Shown here in pieces: positions 19,922 to 32,045 of a stretch of 57,133 bases of DNA (within the stretch, counting starts at the first letter, position 1; each line of letters begins with the position of its first letter). The notes under the pieces were generated by a model, which had not been told where the DNA came from, did not search any database, and worked only from the letters and a program-made list of their open reading frames with translations. This stretch comes from Pseudomonas phage EKU1: the sequence record PV844354.1; one strand, written 5' to 3'. The translations under genes and the position numbers were made by a program.

Positions 19922-20012
19922 TTAATCAGAGGGAGGAGGGAAAAGGGGGGGAAAAAGAAGAAAAAAAAGACGGGAAGGGTCACCCCTCCCTTCCCCCCCC
20001 GCCCGCCCCGCG
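19922..20012. repeat. G/A homopolymer-rich low-complexity tract, probable sequencing or assembly artefact
   Basis: gggaggagggaaaagggggggaaaaagaagaaaaaaaagacgggaagggtcacccctcccttcccccccc. Confidence 0.5.
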
Positions 20013-20240
20013 GGGTGTTGGAAGTCCCTCTGACGGGCGAACGGGTCGGACGTGTCCACCCCGAGCTGCATCGACGTCCGCTTGACCGCTTCGGCCACTA
20101 CGTCGTTCAGCTCCGAGCAGACAGCCGGCAACCGTCTCCGCGGCTCGCTTCGCCGCGTCCTCCACGGATAGTTTCGCCGCCCGGGTCGCAGCCGCAACGG
20201 CGATGTCTTCGACTTGTTCCGGGGTCAGGGGCATATCGGG
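20000..20240 (-). CDS. Small hypothetical protein (MPLTPEQVEDIAVAAATRAAKLSVEDAAKRAAETVAGCLLGAELNDVVAEAVKRTSMQLG…)
   Basis: Joined from ORFs 19980-20387 and 19922-20197 on the minus strand. Confidence 0.3.
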
Positions 20241-20299
20241 GTCCTCGCACCAGATGATCTTGGGCCTGGATTTTACGGAACCCAAGACAACTTGGCAAA

Positions 20300-20711
20300 T
20301 TTTAGACGGCCAACCCAGTCGCGTCCACCCAGGCGGAGCCCGTGGACCGTATCGGCTTGCCCAGGGTGGTGTCGAAGTACCGGCCACCGATCAAGGCGGC
20401 GCTCGCCGCCGGGCGGTTCGCGGTCGTGCCGTAGCCGCGGAGGAACTTCCACGCGCGCCGTCATACCAGTAGGTGCTGTCGGTATCCTCCACGGAAATGG
20501 TCCACCCCTTCTTCGGCACGAAGAACTCCCAGGCCGTCGCCACGCTTGAATAACGCGCGATCCGTTGGCCCTGCCCCGACCAGTTCGCGCCGGTCGGGCT
20601 TGCCGGGAGCACGTACACGTCCCCGTCCGCGGGCGAAGCCGGTTGGGCGGTCGTGGTTGCGGACTTCGCGTGGCCCGTGAGAAGGCCGTCCACCGCGCGG
20701 AGGAAAGCCAT
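20300..20711 (-). CDS. DUF2793-like tail-fibre-associated protein (GTA/alphaproteobacterial-phage type)
   Basis: GDVYVLPASPTGANWSGQGQRIARYSSVATAWEFFVPKKGWTISVEDTDSTYWYDGA…GRYFDTTLGKPIRSTGSAWVDATGLAV; one frameshift. Confidence 0.45.
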
Positions 20712-28311: not shown

Positions 28312-30830
28312 CCTGGCGGACCGCGCCAGCGTTGCGTTGGATCACGTTCAGCAGGACCCGCTCGCCCGAGGAGCTGGTCAGGTAGTCCCGCATCAGGTTC
28401 GGGTCGATCACGTTCACAACCCGGATCGCGGACCCACCGCCCTGCTGCCCCTCGCCACCGCCCCGACGCGCTTCGTCCCGCTCCTGGGTCGGAGTACGGA
28501 GAGGACCCGTTCGCCAGGCGTAGCACGGAAGGCGACCTGCTGCGAGTTCTTCCTTTCCTTTCTGCTTGTGGTCACCCCCGGAAGGGAGGGGGGGGGGTGG
28601 GGGGGTGGTTGGGGGGTGTTTGGGGGGGGGGCGCGGGGTGGGGCGGGGGGGGGGGGGGGGGGTGGGGGGGGGGGGGGGGGGGGGGGGGGCTGGGGCTTTA
28701 GCAGGCTGGTGGTCGCCGTGGTGATCGCCGCCGCCTTGCCGATTGCCGCCCGCTTCTTGTTCTCCGACCGGGACTGCCCGGAGGAGTGGAGAAGAAGTTG
28801 CGCTGGGTGGACAGGTTCTGCTGGTGATCTGGGCCTGGACCCGAGCCTTCAATTGCTGGGCGGTCTGCTCGCTGATGAGGTCGGCTTGCCGCATCCTTCA
28901 TCCTGCGCGTACATTCGCCGTGCCGCCAGGTATCGCCTGCTGGGCTTCGACCGTACCCGCGAGAAGGTCCGCGTTGGACTCCCCCTGGAACTGGTTTGCC
29001 TGGGCCTGCGTGATCGCCCCCGCGGCCTGCTCGTTGATCGCCGTGAGCTGGGCGGTGAACTCCTGCTGGGGTCCGAGGATAGCCTGAAGGACCTGGTTGC
29101 GGGTTTCCGCCGCCCGGGTTTCCGCCTGATCGGGTTGGCTTCTCGCGGAGCTGCTTCGGCTCCTGGTCCCCGAGGATGATGCCTTGATAGCGCGGTCCTG
29201 TTCGATGTAGCGCGCTGCTGTTCGACCTCGCGCTGCTCCGAGGTGAGGCGCAGGGCTCGCGCTCCTCCTCCGGCTGGCGGTTGATCGCGCCCTTCGGGTC
29301 CAGGGCGTCCTTCTGCTGCTCCTCGATCGGCGCCGGGACCTGGGCCTTGCGCTCCGCGGTGATCAGGCCCGCGCGCTCCGCTTTGTCGAGCAAGGCGAGG
29401 GCGTTGGCGTACTCCTGCTGAGCCGCCCAGACACGGTCATAGGCCTACCCGACCTGCTGGTTGAGTTCATCCTGAAGTTTCTTGAGGGCCTTGGCCGCCT
29501 CCTCATCGCCTTTCCCGGAGGTCCGGCGACCACCTCCGCCACCACCCAGGTTCGGCGTCTCGACTTGAGCCGCGGCGACCCGCTCCTTGGAAATGTCGCG
29601 GGCGCGTTCGATCCGCTGTCCAGCATCGCCTCCAGCCCGCTTTCGGATTGGGCGAGGACTTCCTGGCGGAAGCCTTCCTCAAAGTTCGTCCCGATGTTGG
29701 CGCCAACGGCCTTCCAGCCCTCGATGTTGCTGGTCACCGCCGCCTTCAGGCCGTCCACGTCAAGGTCCACCGCCGCCTTCAGGGCGTTCCCGAGCTGGCG
29801 GCGCGCATCAGATCGCCCAGAGTGGTCGTGTCTGCACCAGCCGAGCTTGATTTCGTCCCGGAACAGGGTTAGGGCGGTGATCACGGAGGTGAGGACGATC
29901 AGCGCGAATGCGCCCGAGGGGTTCGCGGCGATGGGCAGCGTTGAGGGCGATCACCGCGGTGCGGACCGCGTTGAACGCAGCCGCGCCCCCGGCGACGATA
30001 GCGAAGCCCGCACCGTTCGACAGGAGGACCTTGGCGATGGTGTCCAGGTTATTGCTGATGAACATGATCGCCTTGGGAGCAGTTCGCTCGCGCCGGTCGC
30101 CTCATCGAACTTACCAACCAGGTCCACCACGTTGTTCTGAAGGACTTGGAAGGACTGGCCGATGGTGGAGCAGGTAAACTTGGGCAACCGCTCCTCCAGC
30201 TCCTCGTCCGGGCGTTCTTGAAGGCGTCGAAGATGATGTCAGCGCTGATTTTGCCGTCCTGACCCATCTGCCGGAGTTCGCCGCGGGTCACGTTCAGCCG
30301 CTTGGCGATCACGTCTGCGACGGTCGGCAGCTGCTCCAGGACGGAGTTCAGTTCATCGCCGCGGAGGACGCCCGAGGCGAGGCCCTGGGCAGCTGGATCA
30401 GGCCAGCTCGAGCCTCACCCGCGCTCGCGCCTGGACAGGGCGATGGCTTGGTTCAGCGACTTCGTGAAGTCGATCAGCTCTGCTGCGACAGGCCAGGTCC
30501 TTCGCGCTGTTGGCCAGTCGGCTGTACGTCTCCACCGTACCCTCCAGGGACTGGCGGGTGGAGTTCGAGACGTCAAGCAGCGACCGATACACCGCCCCGA
30601 GGTTCTGGGCCTCAAGGCCCGTCGCCCGGAGTCGGTTCTGGAGGTTGGTGTAGGTGTCCAGCAGGCGCACGAGTTCGCGCGCAGACAGGTACGCGCCCAG
30701 GGAGGCCAGGGCGTTCTTGAGGAAGTCCACCCCGCCCGCGGCTCCTCGCCCGGACTTGCCGATGTCCTCCAGGTTTCGCTGAACGACACGCGAACCTCGT
30801 TCAGTGATGATGCATGTCAATGCGTTCTTC
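28304..30830 (-). CDS. Tail tape-measure protein (TMP), frameshifted, with a G-rich junk insertion at 28575-28692
   Basis: IAKRLNVTRGELRQMGQDGKISADIIFDAFKN; VVQRNLEDIGKSGRGAAGGVDFLKNALASLGAYLSARELVRLLDTYTNLQNRL; MFISNNLDTIAKVLLSNGAGFAIVAGGAAAFNAVRTAVIALNAA; no ATG (only TTG) at the 5' end near 30820. Confidence 0.6.
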
Positions 30831-30839
30831 GGCCACCGT

Positions 30840-32045
30840 CAGCTCCCCGGGTCCCCGTCAGCAACCCTTCCGAACTGTACAACCTGGACGGCTTCGAGTA
30901 CCGCCTGTTCCACGAAGTTCGCCGGGGCTTGGGCGGAATACCCGTTATTCAGTCGTTGGATGTACGGGAGGTTGTTGGTGAAGAAGGCCGCGGGAGCCTT
31001 TTCGATCGATCACCCCCAGCGCCGCCGACTCTGAGACCATGTGTTCGCCCGGCCAGGAGGTCGAAGAAGCCTACAACCTCTGGCGCGGGTTCGCGCGACT
31101 CCCTCCCGGGCGAGAAGCGCCTGCCCTTCCTGAACCACATCCGCGACAACGTCTGCTCAGGGAACCCGGAGCACTACCGCTACCTGGTCGGGTGGATGGC
31201 GCGAAGGGTCCAGCACCCGGACGGCCCGGGCGAAGTGGCCGTGGTCCTCCGCGGTCGCCGCGGCACCGGCAAGTCCTTCTTCGCCAAGGTCCTGGGCGCG
31301 ATGTTCGGGCGTCACTACCTCCAAGTCAGCGACTCGAAGCACCGGCCAAGGGCTCCTTCAACGCCCACCTCCGCGATACCGTCCTGCTGTTCGGTGATGA
31401 GGCTTTCTTCGCCGGGGACAAGAAGCACGAAAGCGCTTCTCGGGACCCTCGTGACCGAAGAACACCTGGTGATCGAGGGCAAGGCGTGGATCGGAAGCGG
31501 CCCCGAACCATGTCCACCAGGTCCTCGCCTCGAACGAAGATGGGGAGCGTGCCCGCGGGTCTGGATGAACGCCGGTTCTTCGTGCCGAGGTGGCGAGGGC
31601 CACAAGCAGGACCACGCCTATTTCAAGCGCATCAAGGACGATCTGGACAACGGAGGCGGAGCACTCTGCTCCACTTCCTCCCGACCTCTGACCTGAGCGC
31701 CTTCGAGGTTCGCCAGGTCCCCCAGACCCGGGCGCTGCAGGACCAGAAGATCGACCGAACGCCTCGCCGGAAACCCAGTGAATAGGCCGTACGAGAAGCT
31801 GCGGGAGGCGGCCGCCTTCACGACCGACCAGGACTGGCGGAACGGCGGTGAAGGACCGCTCTGCCACGACGTGAACGACCTCCGCGACCAGGGCCGGAAC
31901 TTCCGCCTGAGCCGCACAGGCTTCGGCAAGTGGCTCGCCCGGGCCTTCCCGGACGGCTGGCCGCAGTCGAAGCAGGAAAATGGCGGAGATTCGCCGGCCG
32001 ATCGACCTGGCTTCGAGGTGATGATCAAGAAGCGCGCGGAGCCCC
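30840..32045 (+). CDS. Primase/helicase C-terminal domain protein (P4/D5-type NTPase), 5'-truncated at 30830, 3' end lost in a C/G junk tract
   Basis: KRLPFLNHIRDNVCSGNPEHYRYLVGWMARRVQHPDGPGEVAVVLRGRRGTGKSFFAKVLGAMFG…SFNAHLRDTVLLFGDEAFFAGDKKHES…GTLVTEEHLVIEGK; C-terminal region NFRLSRTGFGKWLARAFPDGW…EVMIKKRAE; no primase domain and no intergenic region before the divergent TMP. Confidence 0.7.

Follow-up and report, generated by a model that had tools for sequence, protein, structure and literature searches.

Probable chimeric origin of a strand flip in the Pseudomonas phage EKU1 record

In the 57,133-nucleotide stretch of Pseudomonas phage EKU1 analyzed here (sequence record PV844354.1, whole stretch hereafter "the window"), the tape measure gene (TMP) and the distal tail genes run leftward, down to ~19907, while the genes for connectors and the major tail protein, at 54700-57133, are oriented rightward, both as described in a first-pass annotation of the letters alone. 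Does this arrangement reflect a real inversion of the phage genome or a chimeric mis-join, the two options which that annotation had left open? We found that the window does have a strand flip relative to all relatives and that a mis-join fits it, but that its anatomy had been misread: it lies at positions 30981/30982, inside the tail-completion gene Orf22. The flip is most likely not a real biological feature. With a probability of about 0.65, it is a chimeric join that arose during production of the record, in a noisy and unfinished copy of an ordinary Yuavirus genome.

Position of the strand flip and its absence from related phages

The megablast comparison of a 13-kb query (window 19000-32000) with 50,697 phage records retrieved 63 records, 29 of which covered at least 80% of the query. 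With few exceptions they belonged to the M6/YuA/PAE1 group (genus Yuavirus) of Pseudomonas aeruginosa siphophages, with 88-92% identity, and PAE1 was alignable over ~51 kb of the window at 88-97% identity. Judged by nucleotide identity and gene content, the window is a Yuavirus genome. It shares ~92% nucleotide identity, noise included, with this genus of the Mesyanzhinovviridae (PAE1, NC_028980; M6, NC_007809; YuA, NC_010116; FBPa53, PP813866).

Then, we mapped the whole window onto PAE1 by local blastn. The only discontinuity relative to the relatives was at 30981/30982, which divides the window into a left and a right arm of opposite orientation (Table 1). Inside each arm gene content and order are those of Yuavirus. 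The best-matching relatives were Chuck and PAC4 for the left arm and Churro and PaTs-2 for the right arm; this difference might reflect separate template phages for the two arms or, with margins below 0.5%, the mosaicism of Yuaviruses. The right arm consists of two pieces, 30982-45380 corresponding to PAE1 50270-62181 and 45383-57133 corresponding to PAE1 3-13878, both on the plus strand. The ends of the PAE1 record are thus crossed seamlessly at window 45380/45383, which fits circular permutation and headful packaging, as inferred for Mesyanzhinovviridae/Yuavirus-type phages (PMC11946847). PAE1 13879-15403 and 48087-50269 (3.7 kb together) are absent from the window, and tblastn against the window found neither the 403 N-terminal codons of the primase nor the N-terminus of Orf22, Orf20, Orf21, Orf61 or Orf62.

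In the three complete relatives compared (PAE1, FBPa53, and M6), all annotated genes lie on one strand, in the order terminase, portal, head, lysis, connectors, major tail, chaperones, tail completion (Orf22), and TMP, followed by the distal tail genes, helicase, nucleotide metabolism, DNA polymerase, primase-helicase, and early genes. The window departs from this single-direction collinear order, its arms being opposite in orientation, a failure that we attribute to the record and not to the phage. Furthermore, the flipped block is not the tail module alone, as had been proposed, but the whole of 14-30981, including replication and nucleotide-metabolism genes. The synteny check suggested by the first-pass annotation thus gave one strand flip, private to the window, and none at 19.9 kb; had there been an inversion, its other breakpoint would have to be placed beyond the window, in the gap that separates the window ends.

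The join fuses codon 102 of Orf22 (148 codons), cut inside its conserved ITNNLPYIQRLNDGY motif, to codon 404 of the primase-helicase gene. The 24-mer just left of the join encodes the conserved motif ITNNLPYI, so the break falls in the best-conserved part of the tail-completion protein. The junction had been placed at 30840, with near-zero intergenic space between TMP and helicase; since 30839-30981 is the native 3' end of Orf22, which occupies that space, the breakpoint is 141 nt further to the right. The description of the rightward gene as a helicase without a primase domain was borne out, its sequence starting at codon 404 of the 803 of PAE1 Orf63. The PAE1 protein, labelled "integrase", is a primase-helicase that matches DUF5906 and, more weakly, VapE-like, Pox_D5, and RepB_primase; the weak RepB_primase match covers residues 53-221 and DUF5906/Pox_D5 residues 494-737, and the cut at 404 falls between them.

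To see if the join is shared, we searched with a 1600-nt query centred on 30981/30982. It was spanned by none of the 154 matching phage records, every match stopping at query position 800 or starting at 801, and in every record listed for both flanks the two lie on opposite strands, ~33-35 kb apart. Native sequence is unbroken across PAE1 15404 in 58 of 63 records and across primase codon 404 in 63 of 63. Among IMG/VR contigs, eight contain the left-flank 24-mer, more distant relatives included, and in all eight the Orf22 coding sequence follows. The junction 33-mer had no match in viral, metagenome, or genome contig collections. Judged from these sequence comparisons, the join is what an artefact would look like, a private junction where the native adjacency is conserved. 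A concatenation of deposited records was rejected, as no record terminus coincides with the junction.

These data bear directly on the possibility of a real inversion. In such a case, a noisy read would have captured a Yuavirus genome that is rearranged and probably defective, with ~34.9 kb (PAE1-equivalent 15404-50269) turned around and the second junction within the 3.7 kb missing between the window ends. The arms do not overlap and are only 3.7 kb short of one whole genome. The join is exact to the single base, and its 1-2 nt of microhomology recall illegitimate recombination; the identical noise on both arms (see below) is compatible with a single molecule. On the other side, each breakpoint interrupts a conserved gene, the tail-completion gene within its most conserved motif and the only primase-helicase, so the inversion product would be non-viable; TMP would also be parted from its chaperones. 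The arrangement is found neither in the 154 phage records nor in the eight IMG/VR contigs, the reciprocal junction was not observed, and a lone unsupported join in sequence of such low quality weighs little. The same facts follow from a chimeric join or a mis-assembly, whose prior is far higher. Consequently, we consider a real inversion very unlikely, and give a similarly small chance to a real variant or packaged defective genome in which ~35 kb (tail, replication, and nucleotide-metabolism modules) was inverted by illegitimate recombination.

Inversion can also be programmed, as in the G segment of Mu (Gin) and the C segment of P1 (Cin), recombinase-driven invertible segments that switch tail-fibre genes. 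The likeness is superficial: tail and fibre genes lie in the flipped arm here too. Nevertheless, the flipped block is at least 31 kb, ten times larger than those segments, and includes the replication module; the breakpoints lie in unrelated genes and not in fibre C-termini, and instead of leaving functional genes in both orientations they destroy two, Orf22 at codon 102 and the primase-helicase at codon 404. No inverted repeats that could serve as crossover sites flank the join, the long inverted repeats of the window being all poly-G/poly-C junk, and the annotations of PAE1, FBPa53, and M6 include neither an invertase nor a serine recombinase (the window's own noisy open reading frames were not scanned). 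We find it hardly credible that the flip is a Gin/Cin-type switch. Repeat-mediated inversion was rejected as well, since beyond the microhomology the flanks share no homology and the only inverted repeats are those junk homopolymers.

Error load of the window and technical readings of the join

The sequence in which the join lies is not of finished quality and carries uncorrected technical error throughout. Apart from the strand flip and the absent 3.7 kb, what sets the window apart from Yuavirus is an indel density of ~13 per kb, together with junk tracts and two private skips. Indeed, 717 indel events, mostly of 1-2 nt, were counted relative to PAE1 over the whole window, and all but 5 of the 59 well-covered genes contain frameshifting indels, at odds with the intact, translatable genes of a Yuavirus. 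It is because of such indels in the tail genes that no minus-strand open reading frame in 20-31 kb exceeds 291 aa.

We called a substitution private when the window differs where PAE1, FBPa53, and M6 agree. Private substitutions amount to 3.8/3.9/2.7% at codon positions 1/2/3, versus 3.0/2.2/8.5% for the polymorphism among the three relatives. The private changes are not concentrated at the third position, hence they are not evolved divergence, which we rejected as the cause of the window's differences. At sites where the relatives differ from each other, the window follows one or another in long blocks, which points to a real mosaic Yuavirus genome under the noise.

Homopolymer runs of at least 8 nt number 57 in the window (up to G29, C20, A14, and T11) and 0 in the three relatives, whose maxima are 5-7. 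Low-complexity tracts that could not be aligned, at least eight in number and mostly rich in G on the window plus strand, stand in place of real sequence (Table 1), and most are similar in length to what they replaced (251 versus 259, 129 versus 136, and 164 versus 187). Two skips are private to the window. In the large terminase gene terL, 305 nt (PAE1 949-1253), present in PAE1, FBPa53, and M6, are replaced by a 16-mer A-run, TAAAAAAAAAAATAAA, at window 46318-46333. In TMP, 264 nt (88 codons) are lost at ~29797-29801, with CCGCC microhomology; they are kept in 12 of 12 relatives listed, the best 12 of 54 matching, where the alignment comes in two pieces spanning 765 nt. The TMP skip and the main join are probably corruptions of one kind; were the skip real, a shorter tail would be predicted.

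The errors have a marked spectrum. True A/T are miscalled at 5.5-8.4% versus 1.3-2.9% for C/G, mainly as A>G and T>C, with near-equal rates on both arms, and inserted bases are mostly G/C. The hot spot of private substitutions is the TG/CA dinucleotide, changed to CG. It is symmetric between the strands on the left arm (1-30981) as well as on the right (30982-57133): before G, T is miscalled at 12.2% on the left and 10.0% on the right, versus 1.7% before C, and A is miscalled after C at 16.5% (left) and 17.3% (right), versus 2.1% and 2.4% after G. This same signature on both arms indicates a single process acting on the two. Homopolymers show no enrichment of deletions, which leaves the attribution to a platform uncertain. 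A decayed prophage was rejected on the AT to GC substitution bias, the overwriting by junk in place, and the absence of the junction 33-mer from bacterial genome contigs.

In M6-like phages, up to half of the thymidines are replaced by 5-(2-aminoethyl)uridine (PMC8989533, PMC6449724), and the sequence motifs of this modification have been reported as unknown (PMC5889632). Should the window be a nanopore-type read, the TG/CA hot spot could reflect the sequence context of the modification; it could equally be a bias of the base-caller or of a generator.

The last possibility belongs to a second non-biological reading, which differs from a chimeric join only in where the corruption arose: the window could be an in-silico derived copy, model-generated or deliberately perturbed, with the strand switch, the skips, and the poly-G loops as copying or generation errors. 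Coherently with this reading, substitutions and indels drift from A/T to G/C, degenerate poly-G runs reach 29 nt, one skip occurred at a short identical k-mer (CCGCC), deletions are independent of homopolymers, and the junction 33-mer is absent from the collections searched; in addition, Yuavirus records are deposited in both orientations, so a trained model would have met both strands. Against it, most junk tracts replace similar lengths and the copying picks up beyond them just where it should, which comes free for a physical molecule but not for a left-to-right generator, and the strand-symmetric hot spot would demand look-ahead from a generator working in one direction; both features point toward a physical read. 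The block-wise agreement with particular relatives likewise points to one real template. We therefore hold an in-silico copy to be unlikely, if still the most serious competitor of a chimeric join.

Returning to the chimeric join, the template would have been one circularly permuted genome, from which two stretches, PAE1-equivalent 15404-48086 and 50270-13878, would have been joined end to end, one of them reversed, as the record was made, giving an arrangement that would be carried by no phage. The record most resembles an uncorrected long read or an unpolished long-read assembly. Long-read chimeras and mis-joins are likewise abrupt, repeat-free changes of strand and locus private to one record, and uncorrected long-read data resemble the window in an error load of 5-8%, deletions in excess of insertions, an A>G/T>C bias, and low-complexity bursts. 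We infer that noise and join came from the same technical process; a long read left uncorrected, a long-read assembly left unpolished, and a copy derived in silico are all candidates.

Some observations weigh against this explanation. The join was judged from the record sequence alone. No adapter or linker sequence was recognised at the join, and some read chimeras keep one. That deletions are not concentrated in homopolymers is atypical for nanopore errors and sets the window apart from uncorrected long-read data. Finally, the arms do not overlap and together come near one genome (57.1 + 3.7 kb), as a real inversion would also give. By our estimate, a random two-molecule chimera and a real inversion sampled so as to miss its second junction would each give such non-overlap with about the same low probability (~6%), so it does not discriminate between them. 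Taking all technical routes together, a non-biological origin of the strand flip is very likely.

Tail genes and neighbouring features

The coordinates of the features are collected in Table 1. The distal tail and fibre genes, each with its frameshifting indels, are not translatable as written. The lack of an ATG in TMP had been counted as an anomaly; the ATG is missing, but GTG is the normal start of the family. The poly-G tract reported at 19922-20012 exists, as part of a low-complexity tract that is one of many across the window. The supposed left junction at 19.9 kb did not survive comparison: the alignment of 11554-25033 with PAE1, FBPa53, and M6 is collinear through this position, which was accordingly discarded as a second breakpoint, and the "-10 box" at 19862 is part of no sigma-70-like promoter match (0 sites in 19400-20100). 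The missing ATG, the poly-G tract, and the -10 box have no bearing on the choice between inversion and mis-join.

Table 1. Coordinates of the arms, the breakpoint, and the main features of the window
Feature	Position	Strand	Remarks
Left arm	14-30981	-	Reverse complement of PAE1 48086-15404 (blastn); collinear with relatives except accessory-gene differences; dCMP deaminase, DNA polymerase, thymidylate synthase, thymidine-hypermodification genes, RNR, helicases, tail genes, TMP, Orf22 3' end
Right arm	30982-57133	+	PAE1 50270-62181, then 3-13878 (blastn); primase-helicase C-half, early genes, terminase, portal, head, lysis, connectors, major tail gene 5' part
Breakpoint	30981/30982		PAE1 15404 (minus-strand reading) joined to PAE1 50270 (plus strand); GGTGA/AGAAGG
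Orf22 3' fragment, codons 102-148	30839-30981	-	tblastn 93.6% identity; native position upstream of TMP
Primase-helicase C-terminal half, codons 404-803 (PAE1 Orf63)	30982-32210	+	DUF5906/D5-type helicase part; 24 frameshifting indels
TMP (tape measure gene)	28293-30836	-	GTG start at 30836, as in PAE1; 25 frameshifting indels
Distal tail and fibre genes (PAE1 Orf24-Orf32 homologues)	19907-28284	-	2-39 frameshifting indels each
Low-complexity noise tract	~19905-20015		Overwrites 3' end of Orf32 homologue (alignment to FBPa53)
Native intergenic region upstream of helicase Orf33	19480-19904	-	Holds (TTC)6 and ACTTA repeat element
Helicase Orf33	17793-19479	-	
Poly-G/A junk tract	25034-25103		~178 nt of real tail-gene sequence replaced
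Other unalignable tracts	11399-11553, 25823-25986, 42944-43072, 46318-46333, 49526-49776, 56447-56631		

The TTC/ACTTA repeat at 19640-19700 is native, being identical to FBPa53 base for base. The element, (TTC)6 followed by two copies of AACTTACTT and by CCTTAAACCCCC, lies upstream of Orf33 in a large intergenic gap. A second copy is found in the gap before the small terminase gene, at 4165-4379 in FBPa53 and 3466-3522 in M6, and a weaker similarity over ~220 nt accompanies the two copies. A phage-specific promoter motif has been described at nine YuA promoters (PMC10914365), and the element may be a candidate part of that motif.

Approximately at 7213-11000 (minus strand), the window is homologous to the thymidine-hypermodification gene region of M6, covering PAE1 Orf43-47. 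The PAE1 genes annotated as "threonine dehydratase" (Orf44), "DNA repair photolyase" (Orf46), and "terminase small subunit" (Orf47) correspond to M6 gp52, to the radical-SAM enzyme gp53, and to the 5-hmdU DNA kinase gp54, respectively (PMC8989533). The public "terminase small subunit" label on the Orf47/gp54 gene looks like a mis-annotation.

The genome underlying the window lacks the PAE1 HNH and homing-endonuclease genes (Orf3 and Orf6) and Orf10, at sites 47290-47354, 48994-49023, and 52280-52289, and ~3 kb of its early region (39677-42620) are present also in FBPa53 and not in PAE1. These differences are ordinary accessory-gene mosaicism of Yuavirus. Positions 1-13 (CGTTCCCCCCGTG) align to none of PAE1, FBPa53, and M6, and no adapter-like sequence was recognised there.

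Meaning for the Yuavirus group

The orientation anomalies, "missing start codons", "truncated domains", and "poly-G junk" of the window are symptoms of a corrupted record, and its open reading frames and junctions should receive no biological interpretation before the sequence is corrected. If the inversion were nevertheless true, it would split the tail-completion and primase-helicase genes and make a strictly unidirectional genome bidirectional. It would then be the first bidirectional architecture in the group, in which three of three fully examined genomes are unidirectional and the join occurs in 0 of 154 matching records, and an example of a gross rearrangement being packaged.

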